From contig JALSJH010000009.1 of NCBI GenBank assembly GCA_026989455.1, positions 33,401 to 97,400 of the forward strand: 64,000 bases of DNA, written 5' to 3'. The notes under the pieces are model-generated. The model was not told the origin of the DNA and did no database searches. It was given only the letters and a program-made list of their open reading frames with translations. This document shows, piece after piece, positions 297-42,084 of the stretch (position 1 is its first letter; each line of letters opens with the position of its first letter). The stretch is from Chromatiales bacterium (GTDB lineage Bacteria; Pseudomonadota; Gammaproteobacteria; RBG-16-57-12). Made by a program: the position numbers and the translations under genes.

Positions 297-1891
297 AGTC
301 TCTGCTGTGTGGTGTCCAGGTTGCTGAAGGTGATTCGGAAGCGAGCGCCGCTGTTACTCTTTATATAGTCTAGCGTTGCATGATTGCATTCGCATAATTC
401 TCTCGCAATGTAGAGGCCGAGTCCAGTGCCGCTGTTTTCTGTGGTGTAGAAGGGTTCGAAGATGTGTTCTGCATCCGCTGGGCTAATGCCGGGGCCATGG
501 TCCTCTATATCGAGATAGGGGCGCTGGTGGGCGGGTGATATGCCATAGTGCAGCTCTACTTTAGGAGCCTTGGGGTAGTTACGGCTGTGGTGTATGGCGT
601 TATTGCAGAGGTTGGAGACGATCTGGTAGAGGTGGGTTGGATCCACGGCGATGGTTTCACTGCTGTTGATGTGGATTGCAATATCGTTGGTGTCGATTTG
701 GTTGCTGCTGGTGAGCTCGTCTAAAAAGCTTGCGAGCCACTCATTCATGGCGATGGTGGTTGGCTTGAACTCTTCACGTCGGCTCAGCTGTAAAATGCTC
801 TCAATGATGGTGTTCATGCGGTTGGAGTGGTTGCTGATGATTTCGATCAGACGCTTATCCTCTTGCTCCAACGCCGGGGACTCATCCAGCAGCTGGGCGG
901 CGTGGCTGATGGCCCCCAGCGGGTTGCGGATTTCATGGGCAATGCTGGCAGTTAGCTGGCCAAGGGAGGCGAGCTTAAGGTGTTGGACCCGCTGGGAGAG
1001 GGCGGAGCTGTCTTCTAGGAAAATAATGGTGCCGTGTTCTACTTGGCTGCCCAACAGCTTGAAGTGGGCGCTTATTTCCGTGCTGTTTTGTGCTGTTTTG
1101 AAAGGGCTGTCGGGCTGCTGCTTTGTCTCTGCCCAGTGCTGGTAGTGATGCTGTAACGAATCGGATAGCTGGTTGAGTTGGCTGCTTTTGTTCGGCTGCC
1201 CCAAGAGTTGCAAGGCGGTTTGATTGATCAGGCGGACCTGTTGGTTGTTGTCGATCACCAGAACACCCGACTGTAATAGCTGCATGACATGTTGATTCAG
1301 CTGCGCGAGATTGGCCAGATCGATGCCTCGCTGTTCGGCCAGCTGTTCGCTCTCTTTTAATCGGCGGTTAAGGGCGGCGCTGAGTAGGGCCACCGCAAAA
1401 AAAGTAGCGCCCAGTAGGCCAGCTTGTGTGTAGTTGACACTGATTTGGTCAATCAGCTGGCTGTAGCTTCGCTCCCCTAGAAGAGCCAGCGTGGCGAAGG
1501 AGGCGATAAAGGTGGCACCCCGTTCAGGCAGTAGTAGCGCGGTGCCGATAATGGTTATGATGAGCAGTATTTCAAGAGAACCCTCGCCACTGTTAAGGGC
1601 GTGAGTCAGTGTGGTGATGGCGATGATGTCGATGATGGCATAAAGATAGACCTGGGTGCCAAAGCGGGGCCACTGTTTGTGAATGGCGATTGAGCTGGCC
1701 ACCGAAAAGAGTAGGAACAGCAGGCTGGCATTTTGGAAGAGCGCTGAGTGCGTTGTCTGCAGGGTGCTATTTGCGGTGGGAAGTAGCGTTAATCCGAAAA
1801 GTGTTGTTGCCAGTATGATGCGGAAGATGTTGAACAGGCGCAGGGTGCGCCAGCGATCTGTTTGCGATGGCGCTATTGCCGGGTGAGGCAC
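293..1891 (-). CDS. pilS: Sensor histidine kinase PilS
   Basis: About six N-terminal TM helices, PAS-like region, H-box LASLGQLTASIAHEIRNPLGAISHAAQLL, G-boxes (DHGPGI, GTGLGLY). Lies directly upstream of pilR. Confidence 0.88.
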   Translation of the reverse strand: MPHPAIAPSQTDRWRTLRLFNIFRIILATTLFGLTLLPTANSTLQTTHSALFQNASLLFLLFSVASSIAIHKQWPRFGTQVYLYAIIDIIAITTLTHALNSGEGSLEILLIITIIGTALLLPERGATFIASFATLALLGERSYSQLIDQISVNYTQAGLLGATFFAVALLSAALNRRLKESEQLAEQRGIDLANLAQLNQHVMQLLQSGVLVIDNNQQVRLINQTALQLLGQPNKSSQLNQLSDSLQHHYQHWAETKQQPDSPFKTAQNSTEISAHFKLLGSQVEHGTIIFLEDSSALSQRVQHLKLASLGQLTASIAHEIRNPLGAISHAAQLLDESPALEQEDKRLIEIISNHSNRMNTIIESILQLSRREEFKPTTIAMNEWLASFLDELTSSNQIDTNDIAIHINSSETIAVDPTHLYQIVSNLCNNAIHHSRNYPKAPKVELHYGISPAHQRPYLDIEDHGPGISPADAEHIFEPFYTTENSGTGLGLYIARELCECNHATLDYIKSNSGARFRITFSNLDTTQQRL

Positions 1892-2892
1892 TAGTAGCGA
1901 CGTCCCACGCTAAAATCAAGCAGCTGATTAAGTGCGCCGCGAAACGGAGAGTCAGGCAGGTGAGTGAGTGATTCTCTGGCAACTCCAGCTTGGCGCTGGG
2001 CGATTTCAGCGGTGTAGTCGATTGCCCCAGTTGCAGTGATCGCTTCACTCACTTGGTCAATTAAACTGCGGTCACCATTAATGATGGCGTTGCGAATAGT
2101 CTCCCGCTGTTGTTCGGTGCCAGTGCGCATGGCATATATCAAGGGGAGGGTGGGCTTGCCTTCGGCGAGGTCGTCGCCTACATTTTTGCCCATCTCTTCA
2201 GCGGTGGCGCTGTAATCCAGTACATCATCTACCAATTGATAAGCGATGCCTAGGTGCAGGCCAAAATCAGCCATCGCTTTCTCTTGTGCTGGGGTGCTGT
2301 TGCTGACCACTGCGCCCAGTTGTGTTGCTGCTTCAAATAGTTTGGCTGTCTTGCAGCGGTTGGCCGCCATATAGCGCTCTTCGCTGGTGTCTGGGTTGCG
2401 GCTGTTGAGTAGCTGCATCACCTCACCCTCAGCAATAGTGTTGGTGGTGTGAGACATGATCTCCATAACGCGCATACGGTTGAGCGATACCATCATTTCA
2501 AAGGCGCGGGAGTAGAGGAAGTCGCCCACCAATACGCTGGCCTGGTCACCCCAGATGGCATTGGCGGTTTCTGAGCCGCGACGCAGCAGCGAGCTGTCTA
2601 CCACATCATCGTGCAGCAGTGTGGCGGTATGAATGAACTCGACAATGGTCGCCAGGTTGATATGCTCGCTGCCTTGGTAGCCAAGGGCGCGAGCAGTCAG
2701 CAGCAGCAGCATTGGGCGCAGACGTTTGCCACCGCTATTTATAATGTGGTGGCCCAGCTGGTTGATGAGTGCAACATCAGAGTGCAGGCTATCTGTGATC
2801 AGTTGATCAACCGAATGGCGCTCCTCTTCGATTAGCGCCTGTATTTCAGTTAGCTCACGATCGTGCTGTTTTATGGTAAGTGTGTCAGACAT
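1891..2892 (-). CDS. ispB: Octaprenyl diphosphate synthase
   Basis: GGKRLRP, HTATLLHDDVVD and QLVDDVLD motifs. Divergent from rplU as usual. Confidence 0.95.
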   Translation of the reverse strand: MSDTLTIKQHDRELTEIQALIEEERHSVDQLITDSLHSDVALINQLGHHIINSGGKRLRPMLLLLTARALGYQGSEHINLATIVEFIHTATLLHDDVVDSSLLRRGSETANAIWGDQASVLVGDFLYSRAFEMMVSLNRMRVMEIMSHTTNTIAEGEVMQLLNSRNPDTSEERYMAANRCKTAKLFEAATQLGAVVSNSTPAQEKAMADFGLHLGIAYQLVDDVLDYSATAEEMGKNVGDDLAEGKPTLPLIYAMRTGTEQQRETIRNAIINGDRSLIDQVSEAITATGAIDYTAEIAQRQAGVARESLTHLPDSPFRGALNQLLDFSVGRRY

Positions 2893-3031
2893 TAAAATAT
2901 ATTCATAATCTGGCTGTTGTTTGAGTCGATAAATCTACCTTGCCCAATCTCAGGATGCAAACGCTATCGCATTTATTCTGTGATTTTGAATGGGGTTTTA
3001 CCCTGATGATGAATTATATAGCGTAAATAAT

Positions 3032-3060
3032 TTGACGGCTGTGGCAGATGTGGTTAAACT
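3032..3060 (+). promoter_or_regulatory. Sigma70 promoter for rplU-rpmA
   Basis: TTGACG-N17-TAAACT. Confidence 0.6.
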
Positions 3061-3146
3061 TTGCCGCCTCGAATACGTATGGTTTATAAGTTTACGCATT
3101 GCGCAGCCTAATTGAGGTGGTGCGGGTGCAGAGTTGGAGATTTAAC

Positions 3147-3458
3147 ATGTACGCTGTAATCAAGACCGGCGGAAAGCAATATAAAGTATCTGAAGGCGAA
3201 ACCCTGAAGATTGAAAAACTGACTGCTGAGGTAGGTGGTACAGTGGCATTTGATGACGTTTTACTGGTTGCCGACGGTGAAGATATCAAAGTGGGCACCC
3301 CTCGAGTAGAGGGTGGCAAGGTAAGTGCTACTGTGGTTTCCCATGGTCGCGGCAAGAAAGTGATGATTATCAAGTTCAAGCGCCGTAAGCACTACCGTAA
3401 GCAGGCGGGTCATCGCCAGTCATATACTGAGGTCCAGATTACCGGAATCTCGGCTTAA
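3147..3458 (+). CDS. rplU: 50S ribosomal protein L21
   Basis: [14 protein letters not shown]...GHRQSYT. Start moved to ATG 3147, which follows a GGAG RBS. Confidence 0.97.
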
Positions 3459-3480
3459 CTAATTTGTAAGGGGTTTAGCA

Positions 3481-3738
3481 ATGGCACATAAGAAAGCGGG
3501 TGGTAGTACTCGTAACGGTCGCGATTCTGTCTCCAAACGCTTGGGTGTCAAGCGTTTTGGCGGTCAAGTGGTGGCTGCTGGTAACATTCTGATCCGTCAG
3601 CGTGGCACACATTTCCACCCGGGTCTGAATGTCGGCATTGGTAAAGATGATACACTTTTTGCAAAGGCAGATGGTCGTGTTGTTTTTGAAGTGAAAGGCC
3701 CTAAAAATCGCAAGTTTGTGAGCGTATTGGCGGCTTAG
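3481..3738 (+). CDS. rpmA: 50S ribosomal protein L27
   Basis: [16 protein letters not shown]. Confidence 0.98.
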
Positions 3739-3763
3739 ATAGAAAAGCGTGATTCTGAAAAAG

Positions 3764-3810: not shown

Positions 3811-6019
<2,209 letters not shown>

Positions 6020-6035
6020 GCGGGGTTGTTTGCAG

Positions 6036-6070
6036 GCATAAAAAAACCCGCGATGCGGGTTTTTTTATGC
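6036..6070. terminator. Bidirectional terminator between proB and rpsT
   Basis: GCATAAAAAAACCCGC-gat-GCGGGTTTTTTTATGC between convergent genes. Confidence 0.85.
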
Positions 6071-6085
6071 GCAGCTTCTATTTTA

Positions 6086-6349
6086 CTAAGCTGCAGATTT
6101 GATGCGTGCATTGAGGCGGCTCTTGGTGCGAGCGGCTTTGTTTGCATGGATCAAGCCCTTGCGAGCGGCCTTGTCAATCGCAGGTGCTGCGGCCTTGTAA
6201 GCGCTTTCAGCGAGTGCTTTATCACCACCGTCCAGGGCTTTTAGCACTTTCTTGATGGTAGTGCGCATCTCACTGCGTTGAGAAGCGTTCAATTGACGAC
6301 TCTTCTCTGCCTGGCGGGCACGTTTTTTAGCTTGTGCTGAATTTGCCAA
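6086..6349 (-). CDS. rpsT: 30S ribosomal protein S20
   Basis: MANSAQAKKRARQAEK...HANKAAR, TTG start. Confidence 0.97.
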   Translation of the reverse strand: MANSAQAKKRARQAEKSRQLNASQRSEMRTTIKKVLKALDGGDKALAESAYKAAAPAIDKAARKGLIHANKAARTKSRLNARIKSAA

Positions 6350-6406
6350 AGGTCTACTCCTAAAATTTTCCGTTGAATATTGTTCGATCGATACCGAAGG
6401 TCGGCT

Positions 6407-6435
6407 AATATGCGTCCTTTTTACTGGTTTGTCAA
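6407..6435 (-). promoter_or_regulatory. Sigma70 promoter for rpsT
   Basis: Minus strand TTGACA-N17-CATATT. Confidence 0.65.
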
Positions 6436-6702
6436 CGTTGTCACCGATTTTTTATCCCTACCCCCTGGATGGGAATGAGAGGTAATTTGTAACATATTGA
6501 TTTAACAGCAAAACAAAAAACAGGAGCCGCGTCTATTGGTTCGGCGCTATTTTTTGTTTTGCTATGGGATCAAGCGCTTGTGCAACATATCATGTCTCTA
6601 TCCGGGGGTTTGGGATTATCATCACCATCGATAAATTGATGGAGTCTGGTATCGTATAGGCTGTTTTTATTCAATGCCCAATCTATTTTATAAGGCTAAC
6701 AA

Positions 6703-8283
6703 GTGAGTTTGAAGCTTCTGCGTTCTGCGGCGACAGTGAGTGCTGTGACGATGATATCCCGGGTGCTCGGTTTTGTGCGGGATATATTGATCGCACGCCT
6801 TTTCGGCGCGGATGCAGGTACCGATGCCTTCTTGGTGGCGTTTAAAATCCCCAATTTTTTACGTCGACTGTTTGCTGAAGGGGCATTCTCCCAAGCCTTT
6901 ATTCCCGTGTTATCCGAATACAAGGAGGCGCGAGGCAAAGAGGCGGTGCGTGAGTTGGTGCAGCGTACCGCAGGTACGCTGGGTGGTGTGCTTTTTCTGG
7001 TGAGTCTGCTGGGTGTGATTGCGGCACCCCTGCTGATTTTACTGTTTGCACCGGGTTTTGCCGGTGATGAGTATAAGCATGGGCTCGCGTCAGATATGTT
7101 GATGCTGACTTTCCCCTATATCTTTTTTATCTCGCTGGTGGCGCTGGCTGGTGGGGTATTAAATACCTTTGGCCGCTTTGGTGTGCCCGCGTTTACACCG
7201 GTATTCCTTAATTTGAGCCTGATTGGCTGTGCGGTATGGCTTGCTCCCCATATGCAGGAGCCAATCACCGCCCTTGCCTGGGGAGTGCTGATTGCCGGTG
7301 TTGCCCAGCTGCTATTTCAAATTCCCTTTTTGATGCGCCTCGGTGTCTTTGGACTGCCCAAATGGGGTGGCCAAGATGAGGGTGTGAAGCGGATAATGAC
7401 CTTGATGATTCCGGCCATTATTGGGGTCTCGGTAGTTCAGATTAACCTGTTGTTTGATACTATCATCGCCTCTTTTTTAGTGACCGGCAGCGTCTCGTGG
7501 CTCTACTACTCTGACCGTTTGGTAGAGTTTCCCCTGGGTGTGTTTGGCATTGCGTTGGCCACGGTGGTGTTGCCGATGCTTTCAAAACAGGTGGCCCGTG
7601 AGGATGAGAGTGGCTTTTCGGAGACTATGGATTGGTCACTGCGTTGGGTGTTTTTGATTGCGGTTCCTGCCACGCTGGGGCTGGTAATGATGGCGGGGCC
7701 GATGCTTGCGACACTGTTTTTCTATGGTGCATTTAACGAGAACGACCTTGAAATGGCGAGCTTGAGTATGATGGCATATGGCAGTGGATTGTTGGGCTTT
7801 ATTCTGGTCAAGGTGTTGGCTCCTGGGTTCTATGCTCGCCAAGATACCAAAACACCGGTGAAGATAGCGATTAAGGCGGTGTTAATTGGCATGTTGCTGA
7901 ATGTGCTATTTGTGGTGCCTATGGTGTGGTTTGATATTGCAGGTGCCCATGCCGGACTGGCGTTGGCGACAGCTTGTACAGCCTTTATCAATGCGGGCTT
8001 GCTCTATTATCTGTTACGCAAAGAGCAGATTTTTGTATTGCAAAGTGGCTGGAGAAGCTTTCTGCTGAAGGTAGCGACAGCGGCATTGGTGATGAGCGCG
8101 CTGCTCTACTTCTATTCGCCTGCACTTGAGCAGTGGATGGCGTGGGGGGGATGGCATCGTGCGGGGTGGTTGCTTTTCTGGGTAACAGCGGGCATGGCAA
8201 GCTACTTTTCAACCCTGTTATTGCTGGGTGTTCGGGTTAAAGATCTACTGGGACGGCCAAAAAACAGTGTTTCTGGCGGTTAA
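6703..8283 (+). CDS. murJ: Lipid II flippase MurJ (MviN)
   Basis: SRVLGFVRD and IPNFLRRLFAEGAFSQAF motifs, polytopic membrane protein, rpsT-murJ-ribF synteny. Confidence 0.96.
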   Translation: MSLKLLRSAATVSAVTMISRVLGFVRDILIARLFGADAGTDAFLVAFKIPNFLRRLFAEGAFSQAFIPVLSEYKEARGKEAVRELVQRTAGTLGGVLFLVSLLGVIAAPLLILLFAPGFAGDEYKHGLASDMLMLTFPYIFFISLVALAGGVLNTFGRFGVPAFTPVFLNLSLIGCAVWLAPHMQEPITALAWGVLIAGVAQLLFQIPFLMRLGVFGLPKWGGQDEGVKRIMTLMIPAIIGVSVVQINLLFDTIIASFLVTGSVSWLYYSDRLVEFPLGVFGIALATVVLPMLSKQVAREDESGFSETMDWSLRWVFLIAVPATLGLVMMAGPMLATLFFYGAFNENDLEMASLSMMAYGSGLLGFILVKVLAPGFYARQDTKTPVKIAIKAVLIGMLLNVLFVVPMVWFDIAGAHAGLALATACTAFINAGLLYYLLRKEQIFVLQSGWRSFLLKVATAALVMSALLYFYSPALEQWMAWGGWHRAGWLLFWVTAGMASYFSTLLLLGVRVKDLLGRPKNSVSGG

Positions 8284-29840: not shown

Positions 29841-32426
29841 ATGTCTAGCGTAACAGTCAAACAATTTGCTGAGGCAGTCTCTGTTCCGGTTGAACGATTA
29901 CTTTCTCAGTTGTCAGAGGCTGGGTTGTCAGCTGAGACAGCGGACGCGTTGATTAGTGATGATGAGAAGGTTCTTTTGCTGGATTTTTTGCGCAAAAGTG
30001 GTGATGGAGTGAAAGAAAAGGCAGTTTCATCGCCTAAGAAAATCACGCTTAATCGCAAATCGACCAGTGAGCTGCGCCAGTCATCATCCCAAGGTGGTCG
30101 TTCAAAGACGGTCAGTGTTGAGGTGCGTAAAAAACGTACCTACGTCAAGCGCAGTGCGGCGGTAGATGAAACACCGACACCTAGCCCAGAAGAGAGCTCT
30201 GTTGAAACAGTCGCAGAGGTTGTTGCAAAGCCACCCGAGCCAGAAAAATCTGAAGAGACGCTGAAGCAAGAGATGCGTGAACGTGCCATTGAGCAGGCGC
30301 GTGTCACTGCGGCGACAGAGGCCAGTAAGAAGGCTAAGCTGAAAGGCGATGTGCTTGAAGAGGTGCGTCGACTCGCCGCTGAAGAGTCGAACCGTAAAAA
30401 GGCAGAGGAGGAGGCGCGCCTGTTGATTGAAGCGCGTAACGCCGTTAAGAGCACGGCAGCGCCTGCATCCGAGAAAAAAGCGGATGACACTAACCCGCGC
30501 AACAATAAGCGCAGGGGTAAGGGTGGCGATCGTGAAACCAAGTATGGCCGCAAAGAGCTGCATGTGGCAAAAGGCAAATCGGGTCGACGTGGTGGCAAGA
30601 AAGGCAAGCGTGCTCGTATGGTTGTTGATGATAATCAAGAGCATGGCTTTACAGCGCCTACGGCTCCAATTGTGCGCGAAGTGGCTGTGTCGGAGACCAT
30701 TGCGGTTGCCGAACTGGCTCAACGCATGGCCGTTAAGGCTGCGGATGTTATCAAGGCGATGATGAATATGGGCACCATGGTGACCATAAATCAGGTGCTG
30801 GATCAGGAGACTGCCTCCATTGTGATTGAAGAGATGGGGCATAAAGTCAAGCTGATCAATGAAGATGCGATTGAAGATGAAATTGTAGGCCTAGTTGATG
30901 AAGATAACGGTGAGCGGGTTTCTCGGCCACCGGTTGTTACCATTATGGGGCATGTCGATCACGGTAAAACGTCACTGCTTGATTATATTCGAACCACTAA
31001 GGTTGCAGCGGGTGAAGCCGGTGGCATCACCCAGCATATCGGTGCATACCATGTGGATACACCAAAAGGAACCATCTCATTCCTCGATACTCCAGGGCAC
31101 GCAGCGTTTACTGCAATGCGTGCTCGGGGTGCTAAAGCAACCGATATCGTGGTGCTTGTGGTTGCCGCAGATGATGGCGTGATGCCGCAAACAAAAGAGG
31201 CCATTCAGCATGCGAAAGCAGCTGAAGTACCCCTTATTATTGCAGTTAATAAGTGTGATAAAGATGAGGCAGATCCTAAACGCGTCATGCAGGAGCTGGT
31301 GGCGGAAGAGGTTATCCCGGAAGATTGGGGTGGTGAGCATATGTTTATTCAGGTCTCCGCCAAAACCGGACAAGGTGTTGATGAGTTGCTGGACAGCATC
31401 TTACTGCAGACCGAGATCCTTGAACTCACAGCCGTTACTGATGCACCGGCAAGAGGCGTTGTTATCGAGTCACGTCTCGATAAAGGTCGGGGGCCTGTGG
31501 CGACCATTTTGGTTCAAAACGGTACCTTGAAAAAAGGGGATATCGTGCTGGCGGGTCTGGAGTATGGTCGAGTGCGTACCATGCTTGATGAAAACGGCAA
31601 GCTGGTGACCAATGCAGGGCCATCGATGCCGGTTGAAATACTCGGTCTATCCGGTGTTCCTTCTGCAGGTGATGAGGCCATTGTGGTTGCCAATGAGCGT
31701 AAGGCGCGAGAAGTGGCGATGTTCCGCCAAGGCAAGTTCCGCGAAATAAAACTGGCGCGCCAACAGAAGGCTAAGCTGGAAAATATGTTCAACACTATGG
31801 CTGAAGGCAAAGTCAGTACCATGAACCTAGTTATTAAAGCCGATGTTCAAGGTTCATCTGAGGCACTCTCCGATGCGCTGCGTAAGCTCTCAACGGATGA
31901 GGTTCGAGTTAATATCGTCGCCAGTGGTGTGGGTGGTATTACCGAATCTGATATGAACCTGGCGATGGCATCCAGTGCCGTGGTGATTGGTTTCAATGTT
32001 CGTGCCGAAATATCGGCCAAGCGTTTAGCTGAAAATGAAGAGATTGAACTGCGTTACTACAGCGTGATTTATGATGCGATTGACGAGGTTCGCCATGCCA
32101 TGACAGGCATGTTGGCACCTGAGTTCAAAGACGTGGTGGTGGGTATGGCTGAAGTTCGTGACGTGTTCAGCGCGCCAAAAATTGGTTTGATTGCTGGGTG
32201 TATGGTCATGGAAGGTGCGGTCAGACGCAGTAGCCCGATTCGAGTGCTGCGTGACAATGTTGTCGTCTACGAAGGTGAGCTCGAATCATTGCGCCGCTTC
32301 AAAGATGATGTCAATGAGGTCAAGAGCGGCACCGAGTGTGGCATCGGCGTGAAAAACTACAATGACGTTCAAGTGGGTGACCAGATTGAAGTCTATGATC
32401 GTATCGAGGTTAAACGTACACTTTAA
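29841..32426 (+). CDS. infB: Translation initiation factor IF-2
   Basis: [18 protein letters not shown] and NKCD motifs. Confidence 0.98.
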
Positions 32427-32842
32427 TGGCGACGCGTAACTACAAACGAACGGACCGTGTGGCGGATCAGATTCAACGTGAGCTGGCTCAGTTGATTGCT
32501 CGCCAGGTAAAAGACCCGCGTGTGGGTATGGTGACGATTACGGGTGTTGATGTCACTCGTGAGTTTGATCATGCGAAGATATTTTTCACCGTTATGGATG
32601 CAGATCAAGCCACGATTAAAGAGACCTCGACTGGATTGACTAAGGCGGCGGGCTTTCTGCGAAGAGAGTTGGGGCGTGCTATTCGTCTGCGAACGGTTCC
32701 GCAACTTCATTTTCACTATGACAGTTCCATCGAGCACGGCGCTCACCTCTCCAACCTGATTGAGCAGGCGGTTAAAAGTGATAAACGGCTTGCCGATGAT
32801 GCGGATGAGGGTATTGATTTGCCTGAAAACGACAAGCGGTAG
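32426..32842 (+). CDS. rbfA: Ribosome-binding factor A
   Basis: [18 protein letters not shown] and LRTVPQLHF motifs. Confidence 0.97.
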
Positions 32843-32850
32843 GTCGGCAG

Positions 32851-33768
32851 GTGGCTCGGCGTAAGAGAGGTCGTGACCTCAGTGGTGTTCTGCTTCTGAA
32901 TAAACCGCTGGGTGATAGCTCCAACGGCATATTACAGCGTGTAAAGCGCCTTTATAATGCCAATAAAGCGGGGCATACTGGCGCGCTTGATCCACTGGCA
33001 AGTGGCATGTTGCCGATCTGTTTTGGTGAGGCTACCAAGTTTTCAAGTTATCTGCTGAATTCTGATAAGTGCTATATTGCGACCTGCAAACTGGGTGCCA
33101 CCACCACCACGGGTGATGCCGAGGGAGAAGTGGTTCAACAACGCCCGGTAGGGGTGTATAGTAGGGCGCTAATGGCGCAAGTGGTTGCGCGCTTTAGCGG
33201 TGAAATTGAACAGATACCTCCCATGTATTCGGCCCTCAAACATAAGGGGCAGCCGCTGTACAAATTGGCAAGGCGAGGTGAAGAGGTTGAGCGTAAAGCA
33301 CGCTCTATAACGATACATCGCTTGGATATCCTGCGTCACGAAGGTGATGAGCTGGATATTCGGGTCTGTAGTTCCAAGGGAACGTATATACGAACCCTTG
33401 CTGAGGATATCGGTGAGTTCCTCGGTTGTGGTGCCCATTTAACTGCCCTTCATCGTGAATGGGTGGCAGGATACGAAGATCATCCAATGGTCTCTCTTGC
33501 GCTGGTTGAGCAGCTGGCTGAGCAGGGATTTGAACAACTGGATGAGAAATTGTTACCGATGGAAGCCGCACTGAAAGACTTTCCGCAGGTTGAGCTTGAT
33601 GCCGATGCCTCGTTTTACATCTGTCGCGGTCAACAGGTGTTTGTAGCGAATAGCCCCCCTTGTGGTCTGTTACGGCTCTATTCGCATGAAAAAGCCTTTT
33701 TGGGTTTGGGTGAAGTTCAGAGTGATGGACGAATCGCCCCCAAACGGCTTGTTAGCAGCGTTGAGTAA
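32851..33768 (+). CDS. truB: tRNA pseudouridine(55) synthase
   Basis: KAGHTGALDPLASG, PPMYSALK and KGTYIRTL motifs. Confidence 0.97.
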   Translation: MARRKRGRDLSGVLLLNKPLGDSSNGILQRVKRLYNANKAGHTGALDPLASGMLPICFGEATKFSSYLLNSDKCYIATCKLGATTTTGDAEGEVVQQRPVGVYSRALMAQVVARFSGEIEQIPPMYSALKHKGQPLYKLARRGEEVERKARSITIHRLDILRHEGDELDIRVCSSKGTYIRTLAEDIGEFLGCGAHLTALHREWVAGYEDHPMVSLALVEQLAEQGFEQLDEKLLPMEAALKDFPQVELDADASFYICRGQQVFVANSPPCGLLRLYSHEKAFLGLGEVQSDGRIAPKRLVSSVE

Positions 33769-33832
33769 TCATCAGCTGCTTAATTAATTTAAACTTATCC
33801 TGTACAGCAGGAGATTATTAGGAGTTTTACCA

Positions 33833-34102
33833 ATGGCATTAACTGCTCAAGATAAACAAGCTATTGTCAACGATTACAAGCGTGGCGAGAGTGATACAGG
33901 CTCCCCCGAGGTTCAGGTTGCACTGCTGACTGCGCGTATCGAAGACCTCTCTGGTCACTTTAAAGAGCACAAGCATGACCACCACTCACGCCAAGGTCTG
34001 CTGCGTTGTGTTAACCAGCGTCGCAAATTATTAAGCTACCTGAAAAACAAAGATCTGGGTCGCTACCGCGATTTGATCTCTCGTTTAGGTCTGCGTAAGT
34101 AA
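33833..34102 (+). CDS. rpsO: 30S ribosomal protein S15
   Basis: [22 protein letters not shown]. Confidence 0.98.
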
Positions 34103-34141
34103 ATTAACAATAATCTATGGCCTTATCTCAAGGAGCCTGAC

Positions 34142-36229
34142 GTGACGACAGCAACAGTAAAAACTTTCCAGTACGGCCAGCATACTGTCAAATTGGAAAC
34201 AGGTGAAATTGCCCGCCAGGCCTCAGGTGCCGTGATGATCAGCATGGGTGACACCACCCTGCTGGTTACCTGTGTTGCAAAGAAAGAGGCCGTCGAAGGG
34301 CGTGATTTTTTTCCGCTGACGGTTAACTATCAAGAGCGTACTTACTCTGCGGGCAAGATTCCGGGTGGTTTTTTCAAGCGTGAAGGCAGGCCGACTGAGA
34401 AAGAGACGCTGACCTGTCGACTGATCGACCGCCCACTGCGTCCGTTATTTCCTAATGGATTTATCAATGAGGTGCAAATCGTTGCTACGGTGGTCTCCCT
34501 CGATCCTGAAATTGATCCTGACATCCCCGCAATCATCGGTGCCTCGGCAGCTGTTGCGTTATCGGGTTGTCCGTTTTCCGGAGTTATAGGCGCAGCGCGT
34601 GTTGCTTATGTTGATGGTCAGTATTTGCTGAACCCTGATCGTACCGTGTTGGCTACTTCTGACCTGGACCTTGTGGTTGCCGGGACGGAAAGTGCGGTGC
34701 TGATGGTTGAGTCGGAAGCGAAAGAGCTCTCTGAAGAGGTGATGTTGGGGGCCGTAGTCTACGGACACGAGCAGCTGCAAACGGCGATTAAGGCGATAGA
34801 TGAACTGGTTGCTGAGGTGGGTGTCACAAAGTGGGAGTGGCAAGCGCCTGTAGAGGATGCCGAATTGAAGGCAGCCGTGGCTGAGATTGCTGAAACATCG
34901 GTCACTGCGGCGTATCAAATCAGTGACAAGCAGGCGCGTTATGCAGCACTGGATGAGGTTCGTGGTGATCTGGTGGCCAAATTGGCATCTGAAACGTCTC
35001 AGTGGAGTGCGGAGGCGGTTAAAGCAGCGCTGAGTAAACTTGAAAAATCGGTTGTGCGCACACGGATTATCGAAGGTAACCCTCGCATTGATGGTCGCGA
35101 TAGCCACTCTGTGCGTCCCATCACGGTCACTACTGGTTTATTGCCTCGTGTCCACGGTTCATCACTCTTTACCCGCGGTGAAACACAAGCAATTGTAGCG
35201 GTTACACTGGGTACAGAGCGTGATGCACAGGTGATTGATGCGATTGAAGGTGAACGTAAAGATCCCTTCATGTTGCACTACAATTTCCCACCTTACTGTG
35301 TAGGTGAGACGGGTATGGTGGGTAGTCCGAAGCGACGTGAAATTGGTCATGGTCGTCTGGCAAAGCGCGGTGTTGCTGCGGTTATGCCGACACTTGACGA
35401 GTTTCCCTATGTTGTCCGCGTTGTATCAGAAATCACCGAGTCAAACGGCTCCAGCTCGATGGCTTCAGTGTGTGGCTCGAGTTTGGCATTGATGGATGCC
35501 GGGGTGCCGATAAAAGCACCTGTTGCCGGTATCGCCATGGGGTTGATTAAAGAAGAGAGTGGCTTTGCGGTGCTGAGTGATATTCTGGGTGATGAGGATC
35601 ACTTGGGCGATATGGACTTTAAAGTGGCCGGTACTAATGGTGGTGTCACTGCATTGCAGATGGATATTAAAATCGATGGCATCACAAAAGAGATCATGGA
35701 GGCCGCTTTAGAGCAAGCCAAGGCGGGTCGCCTGTATATTTTGGGTGAAATGGCCAAGGTTATTCATGACTCCCGTGAAGATGTCTCTGATTTTGCACCT
35801 CGCATTCTGACGATTAAAGTTAACCCGGATAAAATCCGTGACATCATCGGCAAAGGCGGTGCAACGATCCGTGCGCTGACTGAGGAGACCGGCACCAGTA
35901 TCGATATTTCTGATGATGGTGTGGTTAAGATCGCTTCTGTTGATGGTTTGGCAGCAAAAGAGGCTGTAAAGCGTATTGAACAGATTACCGCAGATGTTGA
36001 AGTGGGTTCAATCTACGAAGGTACGGTATCCAAGTTGATGGATTTCGGTGCTTTTGTGAATATCCTTCCTGGCAAAGATGGCCTGGTACACATCTCACAG
36101 ATCTCTGTTGAGCGCGTTGAAAAGGTCAGTGACAAATTGTCAGAGGGTGATGTGATCAAAGTGAAGGTGCTTGAGATTGACAAGCAGGGTCGCATTCGCT
36201 TGAGTATGAAGGCAATCACTGAAGGCTGA
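34142..36229 (+). CDS. pnp: Polynucleotide phosphorylase
   Basis: [30 protein letters not shown], plus KH and S1 domains. Confidence 0.98.
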
Positions 36230-39517: not shown

Positions 39518-39559
39518 TGCCACAAAAAAACCCGGCCTAGTGCCGGGTTTTTTGTGGCA
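39518..39559 (+). terminator. Terminator after ccp
   Basis: TGCCACAAAAAAACCCGGC-ctagt-GCCGGGTTTTTTGTGGCA. Confidence 0.85.
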
Positions 39560-39633: not shown

Positions 39634-41847
39634 ATGCAGAGTAAAAGATATCGTCTTGAGTGGAATAGCGGTATGAGTGTCGGTATCGATGTGATCGATA
39701 ACGAACACAAGGTGCTGATTGAGATGGTCGCCCGATTATCAGATGCCATTGATAACAATGATGCTGATGAGGTGGTACTGGAGATATTCGAACGCCTTGA
39801 ACTCTACGTAAAAGAGCACTTCTCCCGGGAAGAGGCGTTGATGGCAACACTCAACTATGCGCGCTTGCCCCCCCACAAAAAACAACATCAGAAATTTATA
39901 AAGAAAATATCCGAATTTAAAACGACGCTACAAGAGAACTACTCCATCGCCGTTGCAGAAGAGGTTAACCTGTTTCTATTCAACTGGTTAACCAATCACA
40001 TCCTGATTGAAGATATGCGTTTCTCCCTGCCGGCCTATGAGCGTGGCTTGAGCGATTACCAGGCCAGAAAATTAACCGGATTAAAGGGTTTTGCTATCTG
40101 GCTGGGCAGCAATATTCCTCTCAGACAGCGAATAGTGTTGGCCGCATTGATCCCCATTGGCGGCATACTGCTGTTGAGTTTTTTCATACTTTTTTCGGGC
40201 TATCAACAGTTAGGCGAGATGAAATCGCTGTTGGTAAAAAACAAGCTGCTGCAGACAGTCAATGAGCTTACCCATCACTTACAAACCGAACGCGGCCTCT
40301 CCCTAGGTTATCTAGCCGCTGAGAACGACTACTATTTTAGTAAGCTTGTAGATCAGCGCCGTCTCAGTGATCACTCTATTGCACAGTTTAATGATGAGTT
40401 ACAGCGCAGTTATGCAGTAACGCTTGGGGAGGGTGTTTTATTGCCCATCGAGCAGGCTCGGCAACAGCTTCTTCAATTGAAACAATGGCGTGAAAAAGTG
40501 GACAAAAAAGTGGCTGTGGAGGGTGAGGTTAAGCAGTTTTACACGGTGCTGATTGCCGACCTTCTTGATCTTCCGGGTACCCTATTACAACTCGAAGTAG
40601 CCTCTAATATCGCCTTGAAAATGGCCGCCTTCACTTCGGTGTTGCGCCTTCGGGAGTCGGGGGCATTGCAGCGTGATTTGGGTGTTGAGGTGATCGATGC
40701 AGTGTACTTTAGTGAGGAGGATCACACTGTTTTTGCCCGCTTGTCAGGTGAGCAGAGTGGCATCAACCATTTAATTGAGCAGCTGTTAACCCGTGAGCAG
40801 AGGGATAAATTTCTCGCGCTGTACCAGCTTGAAGCTGCCGCAGTGCAATCTTATCAGGTACAGATATACCAGGCAGCGGCTGATGGTCGGCTAACTCACC
40901 TGAGTAGCCAGCGCTGGTTTGAATTGATGTCAAACAAGCTGGATAAGTTGAAAATGATCGCCAATCAGTTGGCCGCAGATGTTGAGTCTCGCATTCACCA
41001 TAAGATTCAAATATTAACCACAAGGCTCAGTTACTACGCTTTCGGGCTCTTGGTTATTTTGGCGCTGATCTCATGTTCATCCTGGTTATTGAGTTACAGC
41101 ATAATCTCTCCTGTACACCGCGTTACCCGGGCAATGAAGCGCTTGGCGCAGGGGTATCGGGATTTTCATTTTTTCGATAAATTTGCCAAAGATGAGCTGG
41201 GTGAGATGGTGGGTGCCTATGAGGCTTGCCGCATCAACCTGCTGCGGGCTGATATTGCCGAAACGGTTCACTCCCGGCGACAAGACTTTAATCTGAAAAC
41301 AAAAATTAGGGAGCGGGAGCATTATAGAGTGCTCTCATCAGTTGATCCTTTAACCGGAGTACTGAATCGGCGTGAATTCAATAAGCGTGCCCAATATGAG
41401 ATTGAGATGGCGTGGCGTTATGGTCGGCCCTTTTCCCTGATGATGATCGACCTTGATCATTTCAAAAAAATAAATGACCTGTACGGCCACGGGGGAGGTG
41501 ACAAGGTTCTCAAGGAGTTTTGCAATACCTGTTATCGCACTATTCGAGAGATTGATATTCTGGCCCGTGTCGGAGGGGAGGAGTTCGCTATTCTTATGCC
41601 GGAGACAAATGCCAGGCAAGCCTACGAGCTGGCAGAGCGGATACGCAGTGCGGTTAGTAAATTATCGATTCCTGTGAATGGCGCAGAAGCCTCTGTTACG
41701 GTCAGTATTGGGATCGTTGAGTGGTCATCGGCACATCAAAAAGAGGTCGGAAAAGTATTGACTGATGCAGATGCAGCACTCTATCAAGCTAAAAATTCAG
41801 GAAGAAACCGAAGCGTAATCTACACTCCCCCCCGAGGCGAAGCCTGA
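39634..41847 (+). CDS. Diguanylate cyclase with architecture hemerythrin - TM - NIT-like sensor - TM - HAMP - GGDEF
   Basis: Hemerythrin ligands H25, H62, E66, H81, H85, H122, D127. TM at about 167-189; ELTHHLQTERGLS NIT-like motif; second TM; HAMP (SPVHRVTRAMKRLAQG...DELGEM); DPLTG, DLDHFKKIND, RxxD and GGEEF. Confidence 0.85.
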   Translation: MQSKRYRLEWNSGMSVGIDVIDNEHKVLIEMVARLSDAIDNNDADEVVLEIFERLELYVKEHFSREEALMATLNYARLPPHKKQHQKFIKKISEFKTTLQENYSIAVAEEVNLFLFNWLTNHILIEDMRFSLPAYERGLSDYQARKLTGLKGFAIWLGSNIPLRQRIVLAALIPIGGILLLSFFILFSGYQQLGEMKSLLVKNKLLQTVNELTHHLQTERGLSLGYLAAENDYYFSKLVDQRRLSDHSIAQFNDELQRSYAVTLGEGVLLPIEQARQQLLQLKQWREKVDKKVAVEGEVKQFYTVLIADLLDLPGTLLQLEVASNIALKMAAFTSVLRLRESGALQRDLGVEVIDAVYFSEEDHTVFARLSGEQSGINHLIEQLLTREQRDKFLALYQLEAAAVQSYQVQIYQAAADGRLTHLSSQRWFELMSNKLDKLKMIANQLAADVESRIHHKIQILTTRLSYYAFGLLVILALISCSSWLLSYSIISPVHRVTRAMKRLAQGYRDFHFFDKFAKDELGEMVGAYEACRINLLRADIAETVHSRRQDFNLKTKIREREHYRVLSSVDPLTGVLNRREFNKRAQYEIEMAWRYGRPFSLMMIDLDHFKKINDLYGHGGGDKVLKEFCNTCYRTIREIDILARVGGEEFAILMPETNARQAYELAERIRSAVSKLSIPVNGAEASVTVSIGIVEWSSAHQKEVGKVLTDADAALYQAKNSGRNRSVIYTPPRGEA

Positions 41848-42068: not shown

Positions 42069-42084
42069 GGGCGCAAAATTTGCA
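42069..42084 (+). promoter_or_regulatory. Sigma54 (-24/-12) promoter of the fliL operon
   Basis: GGGCGC-AAAAT-TTGCA. A partial FleQ-box-like GTCAAAAAAATAGC lies at 41959-41972 with an AT-rich spacer between them. Confidence 0.65.

Follow-up and report, generated by a model that had tools for sequence, protein, structure and literature searches.

The window analysed here is a stretch of 64,000 nucleotides from a Chromatiales bacterium (assembly GCA_026989455.1, contig JALSJH010000009.1, positions 33,401 to 97,400), and the gene under study lies on its forward strand (Table 1): one ATG-initiated open reading frame (ORF) of 737 codons that translates without internal stops, with many stop codons on the opposite strand. 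Pfam and NCBIfam models recognise four domains in the product, namely Hemerythrin, NIT, HAMP (a match below threshold) and GGDEF, and the Kyte-Doolittle profile adds two hydrophobic segments, at residues ~167-189 and ~466-488. From this make-up the protein, referred to below as the cyclase, is predicted to be an intact, membrane-bound and probably active diguanylate cyclase. The reading that we favour, at slightly better than even chances, is that of a cyclic di-GMP (c-di-GMP) synthase with two inputs, a nitrate/nitrite-like anion in the periplasm and O2 or redox state in the cytoplasm. An earlier interpretation made from the letters of the DNA alone (the sequence-only reading) had proposed the same order of domains, two transmembrane (TM) helices and a GGEEF motif with an RxxD inhibitory site (I-site); Pfam, the Kyte-Doolittle profile and the location of the motifs bore this out, and the two strings that it had quoted from the region between the TM helices, ELTHHLQTERGLS and LRESGALQR, are both present in the translation. 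An AlphaFold2 model of the whole cyclase, computed with a 46-row family alignment as input, reached a mean predicted local distance difference test score (pLDDT) of 87.1. The same alignment underlies all counts of residue conservation given below; it contains some duplicate rows, such as L003 and P0005.

The topology of the cyclase rests on domain logic. The GGDEF domain uses cytoplasmic GTP and follows the second TM helix (TM2) and the HAMP-like linker, and the chain passes the membrane twice; therefore the N-terminus and the hemerythrin domain are inside and residues 190-465 (~276 residues) are periplasmic. The charges flanking the TM segments are not decisive for topology. The cyclase very probably works as a dimer at the inner membrane.

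The N-terminal domain was identified as a bacteriohemerythrin by NCBIfam NF033749 over residues 8-131 (115.4 bits, cut-off 84), by TIGR02481 (109.2 bits, cut-off 51.75) and by Pfam PF01814 over residues 17-129 (E = 1e-15, 58.9 bits, cut-off 25.3). Its seven di-iron ligands, which in bacteriohemerythrins follow the motif H-HxxxE-HxxxH-HxxxxD (PMC9388753), are complete and stand where the sequence-only reading had placed them, at H25, H62/E66, H81/H85 and H122/D127. H25, H62, E66, H85, H122 and D127 are kept in all 46 rows of the family alignment and H81 in 41 of them. In all five Sedimenticola rows (L033, L034, L035, L038 and L040) H81 is replaced by Q and the six remaining ligands are kept, a clade-specific change of the di-iron site. 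The AlphaFold2 helices 19-40, 45-72, 78-101 and 105-136 form a four-helix bundle (pLDDT of this block 77-91), and the closest solved relative is the hemerythrin of Desulfovibrio vulgaris DcrH (PDB 2AVK; E = 2e-14), with which every ligand position is in register. The domain is predicted to bind two irons and to react with O2.

For the periplasmic region the wording 'NIT-like' of the sequence-only reading turned out to be right in identity and too weak in degree, since the region is a full-length Pfam NIT domain (PF08376; E = 2e-34, 120.4 bits, cut-off 24.9) that matches profile positions 1-238 of 239. Klebsiella oxytoca NasR (PDB 4AKK), which holds the only known NIT domain of solved structure, served for the fold test; the single cyclase sequence matched it with an E-value of 1e-4, and a profile made from 38 family members matched it across the whole domain with an E-value of 4.4e-35. 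As a fold search with the whole protein gave only GGDEF structures, the NIT part (residues 192-464) was modelled alone (pLDDT 91.8, predicted template-modelling score 0.91). Foldseek placed this model on NasR with TM-scores of 0.86-0.87 and a root-mean-square deviation (rmsd) of 2.5 Å over 272-276 columns at 22% identity; the NasR chains were its only two hits at E ≤ 0.001, and the next hits had E ≥ 0.04. By profile and predicted fold, the NIT part of the cyclase is a true NasR homologue. The NasR exchanges R50A and R176A are reported to abolish the nitrate response (PMC9581486), and E175 and R176 were predicted to line the pocket (PMC7496416). R50 and R176 align with R220 and R347 of the cyclase, of which R220 is kept in 46 of 46 family rows and R347 in 43; the pair E219-R220 is invariant, and the family consensus GxERAxG corresponds to GQERALG in NasR. 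The earlier statement that NIT domains bind nitrate or nitrite holds for some receptors, as the NIT domains of Pectobacterium and Dickeya chemoreceptors bind both anions with dissociation constants of 2-47 micromolar (table in PMC12358799), but not for PA4520 of Pseudomonas aeruginosa, whose NIT domain binds neither (PMC6381276), and therefore the family name does not fix the ligand. The odds that nitrate or nitrite is the ligand of the cyclase NIT domain are roughly even to better.

At the output end, the GGDEF domain matches Pfam PF00990 with E = 7e-50 (169.3 bits, cut-off 23.8) and TIGR00254 with 175.6 bits (cut-off 37.4). The GGEEF active-site motif at residues 647-651 is kept in 46/46 family rows; the I-site R638-E-I-D641 precedes it by the five residues ILARV and is also conserved (R638 in 44/46 rows, D641 in 46/46). 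The RxxD I-site marks product-inhibited cyclases and is not required for GGDEF membership. In the Foldseek search with the whole model, 103 hits were obtained at E ≤ 0.001, all those listed being GGDEF proteins, and the comparison with 3ign gave a TM-score (TMt) of 0.97 and an rmsd of 0.9 over 165 columns. The domain is predicted to be catalytically competent for the synthesis of c-di-GMP from GTP. In the AlphaFold2 model an unbroken helix (163-229) runs from the first TM helix (TM1) into the NIT domain and another (425-505) from the NIT domain through TM2 into the first HAMP helix; the chain then forms a 15-residue connector, and the next helix starts at 521. The model is of a monomer, which cannot show a HAMP four-helix bundle. 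With P493 kept in at least 90% of the family rows, the arrangement of the HAMP-like linker is consistent with HAMP, and HAMP was matched at E ≤ 0.001 in 24 of the 54 family members that were scanned. By its position, the long helix that leads from HAMP to GGDEF is a putative signalling helix (S-helix), a concept described in PMC1592074.

Because two membrane passes lie between the hemerythrin and the GGDEF domain, the signal of the former must go via TM1 or by direct contact with HAMP/GGDEF. A complex prediction with two copies of the hemerythrin part (residues 1-162) and two copies of the HAMP-GGDEF part (residues 485-737) gave a score of 0.55, the best of three controls reaching 0.02; the runs agreed in at least 81% of contacts and the pLDDT of the partner was at least 74. 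In the calibration of this procedure, 58 of 80 solved complexes and 2 of 110 mismatched pairs passed the mark; those that passed with scores of 0.60 or less were only 7 of the 80 solved complexes and both of the mismatched pairs. The set-up used here departs from that calibration in its custom alignment, in the number of copies and in pairing two parts of one chain. The predicted docking of the hemerythrin on HAMP-GGDEF lends weak support to a direct contact.

Known proteins share parts of this layout, and the likeness to Vibrio cholerae Bhr-DGC and to NasR-type NIT domains that the sequence-only reading had drawn was supported. Bhr-DGC (Schaller et al. 2012, via PMC9388753) also combines an N-terminal bacteriohemerythrin with canonical ligands and a C-terminal active GGDEF domain, and it is the precedent for redox-controlled c-di-GMP synthesis: its diferrous form is about ten times as active as the diferric one (0.77 versus 0.073 per min), the cue being redox state rather than the binding of a ligand, and it is the only characterised hemerythrin-cyclase (PMC9388753). 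Bhr-DGC is soluble, however, and its hemerythrin leads directly into GGDEF, whereas TM1, NIT, TM2, HAMP and the signalling helix stand between the two domains of the cyclase; since ~430 residues intervene, coupling through a simple linker as in Bhr-DGC is ruled out. NasR, a NIT-ANTAR protein, shares the NIT fold, the profile match and the counterparts of R50 and R176 with the cyclase, but it is a cytoplasmic protein in which NIT inhibits the RNA-binding ANTAR domain, while the NIT domain of the cyclase is periplasmic, lies between TM helices and signals through HAMP. This latter placement is found in the NIT chemoreceptors of Pectobacterium atrosepticum and Dickeya dadantii (Monteagudo-Cascales et al. 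2023; Galvez-Roldan et al. 2023, via PMC12358799) and in PA4520 (PMC6381276), in all of which two TM helices flank a periplasmic NIT domain and HAMP comes next; unlike the cyclase these receptors have a chemoreceptor output and no hemerythrin. DcrH (periplasmic domain-HAMP-MCP-hemerythrin, where MCP stands for methyl-accepting chemotaxis protein) is likewise a two-compartment receptor with a cytoplasmic hemerythrin, which however is C-terminal; its output is chemotaxis and its periplasmic domain is not NIT. Escherichia coli Aer (PAS-FAD, membrane hairpin, HAMP, MCP) resembles the cyclase in having a cytoplasmic redox sensor before a membrane anchor (PMC13232288, PMC9668731), and its sideways signalling from PAS to HAMP is the best mechanistic analogy for a hemerythrin reaching HAMP/GGDEF; Aer differs in its PAS-FAD sensor, in lacking both a hemerythrin and a periplasmic sensor, and in its chemoreceptor output.

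The architecture is recurrent in dozens of marine bacteria and not unique. A word-indexed search of 5.8 billion proteins returned, among the matches listed, at least 11 clusters with Hemerythrin, NIT and GGDEF and one truncated form, and 39 near full-length loci in ~38 species genomes came from a scan in which each of 185,579 species was represented by a single genome. Carriers belong to Pontibacterium, Neptuniibacter, Marinobacterium, Oceanospirillum, Motiliproteus, Sedimenticola, Colwellia, Litorilituus and Moritella and include metagenome-assembled genomes (MAGs) of Piscirickettsiaceae and Methylococcales as well as three Campylobacterota (Sulfurimonas, Sulfurovaceae and Campylobacterales). 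When residues 1-470 were compared by phmmer with 1.84 billion representatives, 68 of the best 150 hits spanned hemerythrin and NIT in one stretch, so that the hemerythrin-NIT module is present in at least 68 clusters (50% identity), a lower bound as it comes from the best 150. The suggestion of the sequence-only reading that the gene is a one-off 'novel system' does not stand against these numbers; its statement that no characterised protein has the full architecture does, as no paper on a characterised hemerythrin-NIT member was found in the literature searched. The characterised hemerythrin sensors listed in the available text of two reviews (PMC9388753, PMC8846402) are Bhr-DGC, Bhr-HD-GYP, DcrH and P1B-5 ATPases and no others, and neither review mentions a NIT-hemerythrin protein there; NIT is not named in the main text, as far as available, of the survey PMC4919030, whose S2 Fig of hemerythrin architectures may show the combination.

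Among 54 hemerythrin-NIT members that were scanned, all had Hemerythrin and NIT and 51 had GGDEF, the other three being short fragments. In a 12-member class of 820-840 residues, the MCP signalling domain (MCPsignal) stood in place of GGDEF in all seven members tested, and of three longer members scanned (1068-1170 residues) one was a PAS-GGDEF-EAL protein and two were PAS-histidine kinase-receiver proteins. Hemerythrin-TM-NIT-TM-HAMP is a portable input cassette, wired also to chemoreceptor, GGDEF-EAL and histidine-kinase outputs, and the cyclase belongs to a recurrent family, known from sequence, in which this cassette is reused. A quick maximum-likelihood tree of the NIT region was computed from 76 rows (two rows without the anchor motif were dropped) and rooted at the midpoint. 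With this rooting, the 12 hemerythrin-MCP proteins and 9 of 10 hemerythrin-less NIT receptors formed one clade (Shimodaira-Hasegawa-like approximate likelihood-ratio test 93) nested among the hemerythrin-GGDEF proteins, and the hemerythrin label changed at least three times on well-supported branches; the hemerythrin-less rows had been picked by similarity to the query, which biases their placement. The interleaving indicates that the hemerythrin was gained or lost, and outputs were exchanged, inside one NIT subfamily.

Several loci in this collection deserve separate mention. In the complete genome of Neptuniibacter sp. QD37_6 the gene (L014, 8001-10181) has an in-frame TAA at match residue 375, inside NIT, after which the frame stays open for 351 codons; it is a natural null or split allele, and the gene is intact in four sister Neptuniibacter genomes. 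The orthologue at L036 is intact, with an open frame of 731 residues. In a MAG of an uncultured delta proteobacterium, L057 and L058 matched query residues 8-735 over ~1.1 kb (E ~1e-38); these two probably lack NIT and encode soluble proteins of the Bhr-DGC type, with hemerythrin and GGDEF.

The nitrogen metabolism of the carriers was assessed at the level of single genomes and of the family. In the genome of the window (2.37 Mb, 116 contigs, 99.35% complete) neither NapA nor NarG was found above cut-off, and NirS, NirK, NrfA and NosZ were not found. NirB is present (975 bits), followed by a molybdoenzyme of 695-731 residues, and a second molybdoenzyme of 882 residues has a BFD-type C-terminus; both score best, below the cut-offs, to models of formate dehydrogenase-alpha, NasC and NasA. 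As their matches begin at NapA profile position 41-42, both lack an export signal, and together with NirB these signal-less NasA/NasC-like enzymes indicate assimilation of nitrate and not respiration, so that nitrate is probably a nitrogen source of the organism. Among 37 other carrier genomes, NapA was above cut-off in 19, NarG in 13 and either in 28, as compared with 21, 15 and 31, respectively, of 121 genomes sampled evenly across the class (in this sample the NarG count includes the unpublished genomes G082 and G159). Taken without correction for kinship, genome size and habitat, and with three carriers from another phylum, this difference (76% versus 26%) is suggestive. Nap and Nar are also lacking in the genus-mate G041 and in five Neptuniibacter genomes. 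The only other NIT match in the genome of the window (G000, contig C58, locus L099) is partial (E = 6e-6) and falls in an ORF of 316 residues that begins 7 nt before the end of an upstream ORF of 385 residues with an MCP signalling domain; the pair (5440-7541, minus strand) adjoins the gene of the 882-residue NasA/NasC-like molybdoenzyme (1093-3741, minus strand). With the MCP-signal gene ahead of the NIT gene the order is unusual, and the pair may represent a split or permuted cytoplasmic nitrate chemoreceptor.

On its 5' side the cyclase gene is preceded by a divergent regulator of the LysR type (225 bits to OxyR, below the cut-off of 329 bits) and then by a gene of the di-haem peroxidase family (Pfam CCP_MauG; best NCBIfam hit the MbnH family, 225 bits, below the cut-off of 362.85 bits), the latter at a distance of 126 nt. 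Between the peroxidase and cyclase genes lies an inverted repeat that looks like a bidirectional intrinsic terminator, and because of this candidate hairpin the two genes are probably not co-transcribed. On the 3' side, 269 nt separate the cyclase gene from fliL-fliM-fliN-fliO-fliP-fliR-flhB-flhA-flhF; the fliL ATG has a GGAG ribosome-binding site, and a sigma-54-like element ahead of fliL, a look-alike by eye, is a candidate for the downstream boundary of the cyclase transcription unit. With the hairpin on one side and this element on the other, the cyclase gene looks monocistronic. Orthologues were found in two of three other genomes of the genus: G002 has lysR-ccp, 5.2 kb, the cyclase gene and fliL-flhA, and the other genus-mate has lysR-ccp-cyclase without flagellar genes. 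In G002, a 90%-identical genus-mate, the orthologue (L117, contig C38) is separated from the peroxidase gene by an insertion of ~5.2 kb (between 10186 and 15378). At 40 loci from other genomes no flagellar neighbours were seen, and lysR-ccp occurred only at L003; a search of the other 38 relatives did not reveal the module, and one further relative, G025, matched the hemerythrin part only. A conserved functional link to the flagellar genes by way of a common operon was rejected, as the fliL-flhA arrangement is limited to this genome and G002 and a sigma-54-like promoter stands before fliL, and so was an operon that would join the cyclase gene to the genes for the di-haem peroxidase and the OxyR-like protein, given the hairpin and an arrangement that is essentially bound to the genus. 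Further upstream, positions 29841-36229 of the window hold the conserved infB-rbfA-truB ... pnp block (named by reading the translations), and in two Neptuniibacter genomes (L008 and L010) pnp lies directly 5' of the cyclase orthologue. The genome of the window has 16 GGDEF and 8 PilZ matches.

Table 1. Features of the cyclase gene and its flanks (positions in the window)
Feature	Residues	Positions	Strand	Characteristics and basis
Whole gene	1-737	39634..41847 (stop codon included)	+	737-residue hemerythrin-TM-NIT-TM-HAMP-GGDEF diguanylate cyclase; ORF list, translation, Pfam, NCBIfam
Bacteriohemerythrin domain	8-136	39655..40041	+	Four-helix bundle; ligands H25, H62, E66, H81, H85, H122, D127; NF033749
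Short helix in the hemerythrin-TM1 linker	150-160	40081..40113	+	AlphaFold2 secondary structure; putative function
TM helix 1	~167-189	40132..40200	+	Kyte-Doolittle peak 2.72 at window 167
NIT domain	211-450	40264..40983	+	Conserved HxLQxERG (214-221), R286, E341, R347, W428; PF08376
TM helix 2	~466-488	41029..41097	+	Kyte-Doolittle windows 460-474 above 1.6
HAMP-like linker	485-530	41086..41223	+	Pfam HAMP below threshold; AlphaFold2 helix-connector-helix
Long helix (signalling-helix type), HAMP to GGDEF	531-568	41224..41337	+	AlphaFold2 helix 521-569; named from its position
GGDEF domain	569-726	41338..41811	+	GGEEF 647-651 (nt 41572-41586); RxxD 638-641 (nt 41545-41556)
Perfect inverted repeat, candidate terminator		39519..39558	.	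GCCACAAAAAAACCCGGC / GCCGGGTTTTTTGTGGC, 17-bp arms, flanked by an A-run and a T-run; read by eye, unlisted by the pattern scan
Sigma-54-type promoter look-alike (-24/-12)		42069..42084	+	GG-N10-GC, GGGCGCAAAATTTGCA; by eye against the consensus; 33 nt 5' of the fliL start

In the two-input reading, a pocket of the NIT domain to which R220 and R347 contribute would hold a small oxyanion, nitrate and/or nitrite being the most likely, and the resulting change would travel down helix 425-505 via TM2 to the HAMP-like linker, which would set the register of the two GGDEF halves and hence the rate of c-di-GMP synthesis. The hemerythrin, by analogy with Bhr-DGC, would toggle between the diferrous and the diferric state with O2 or cellular redox and bias the same output, either by docking sideways on HAMP/GGDEF, as the PAS domain of Aer does on HAMP, or through TM1. 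The level of c-di-GMP would then be set jointly by oxygen or redox inside and by N-oxyanions outside, and c-di-GMP would act on PilZ and other receptors and shift the balance between swimming and attachment. Such dual-input logic is plausible. A more specific form, in which the hemerythrin docked on HAMP or on the output gates the nitrate/nitrite signal as a redox-controlled AND or veto gate, and in which the cassette has been reused in this capacity for c-di-GMP synthesis, chemotaxis and phosphorelay, is possible but on balance rather doubtful.

A number of observations weigh against the two-input reading. The start codon is unsettled, as no Shine-Dalgarno sequence was found ahead of the ATG at 39634 and a 99%-identical database protein has its start called at M14; the long form is nevertheless favoured because W10 is kept in 43/46 family rows. 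Of the domains named in the sequence-only reading, Hemerythrin, NIT and GGDEF passed the Pfam cut-offs but HAMP (PF00672) did not, with 21.9 bits against 25 (E = 2.3e-4). The ~430 residues and two membrane passes that part the hemerythrin from GGDEF have no equivalent in Bhr-DGC, and the predicted docking that might bridge them is only a lead. Other points concern the ligand, and these are shared by a rival in which enzyme and topology are the same but the NIT domain senses another small anion or periplasmic cue, 'nitrate' being merely a family name. PA4520 not only bound neither anion, but its mutant kept nitrate taxis, and its authors suggested that NIT is a superfamily with differing ligands (PMC6381276). 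Identity to NasR is low (22%), NasR E175 corresponds to Q346 in the cyclase, NasR R236 has no conserved counterpart, and R347 is replaced in close relatives, by S in L003/P0005 and by Q in P0004. The absence of a respiratory N-oxide reductase from the genome of the window also gives the sensing of nitrate a less obvious physiological point. This rival is nonetheless rather unlikely in our estimate: both arginines essential in NasR are present and conserved throughout most of the family together with the invariant E219-R220 and the shared GxERAxG, the genome appears to use nitrate by way of NirB and NasA-like enzymes, and Nap or Nar is more frequent in carriers than in the class sample, a comparison uncorrected for kinship.

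The remaining alternatives concern what the hemerythrin contributes and what the combination is for. Hemerythrin-like di-iron proteins can bind NO, and the hemerythrin might respond, in place of O2, to a different oxidant or ligand, namely H2O2 or oxidative stress, nitric oxide or the availability of iron; N-oxyanion sensing would then be linked to stress. The di-haem peroxidase-family gene and the OxyR-like regulator, which lie by the cyclase gene in all three genus genomes that have it, are a weak hint in this direction; but the peroxidase gene stands behind the terminator-like hairpin, is 5.2 kb away in a genus-mate and is absent from the other 39 loci compared, nothing in the sequence sets O2 apart from other oxidants, and we consider this alternative unlikely. 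The sequence-only reading had gone further than two inputs and proposed an enzyme that compares two electron acceptors across the membrane, weighed here as respiratory ones with O2 on the inner and nitrate/nitrite on the outer side, as a logic gate for oxic-anoxic interfaces. At the level of the family this keeps some ground, with Nap or Nar in 28/37 carriers against 31/121 genomes of the class sample and with Sedimenticola, Sulfurimonas and Sulfurovaceae among the carriers. It does not fit this genome, in which the respiratory reductases searched for were not found and the NapA-like enzymes, one of them adjoining nirB, lack an export signal; G041 and the five Neptuniibacter genomes are carriers without Nap and Nar as well, and the association itself is uncorrected for kinship, genome size and habitat. 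For this organism the two-acceptor gate is therefore improbable. That the hemerythrin is no signal input at all but an O2 or iron buffer or a module for dimerisation or stability, with NIT alone regulating the cyclase, appears very improbable. The hemerythrin-less NIT receptors interleaved in the NIT tree speak for it and also count against a two-input enzyme, because they indicate that NIT can work without hemerythrin and that the inputs need not be mechanistically linked; the di-iron ligands are, however, strongly conserved, the hemerythrin is N-terminal across four output classes, and the docking prediction exceeded its best control, which lends it weak support as an input.

How bacteria merge several cues into one c-di-GMP decision is mostly not understood, and the few characterised hemerythrin sensors (DcrH, Bhr-DGC, Bhr-HD-GYP and P1B-5 ATPases) each have a single known input. 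The family of the cyclase offers a compact test case, with an outside and an inside sensor on one enzyme, four outputs and hemerythrin-less relatives as natural controls. Should the signalling prove to have an ordinary single input, with an accessory domain beside it, only another annotated domain combination would be added. If the gated cassette were true, it would provide the first hemerythrin acting on HAMP in the manner of Aer and the first defined receptor that integrates O2/redox and N-oxyanions in one polypeptide. And if nitrate/nitrite and O2/redox are indeed the inputs, the cyclase and its relatives would help to explain the choice of marine bacteria between swimming and settling along gradients of oxygen and nitrate.

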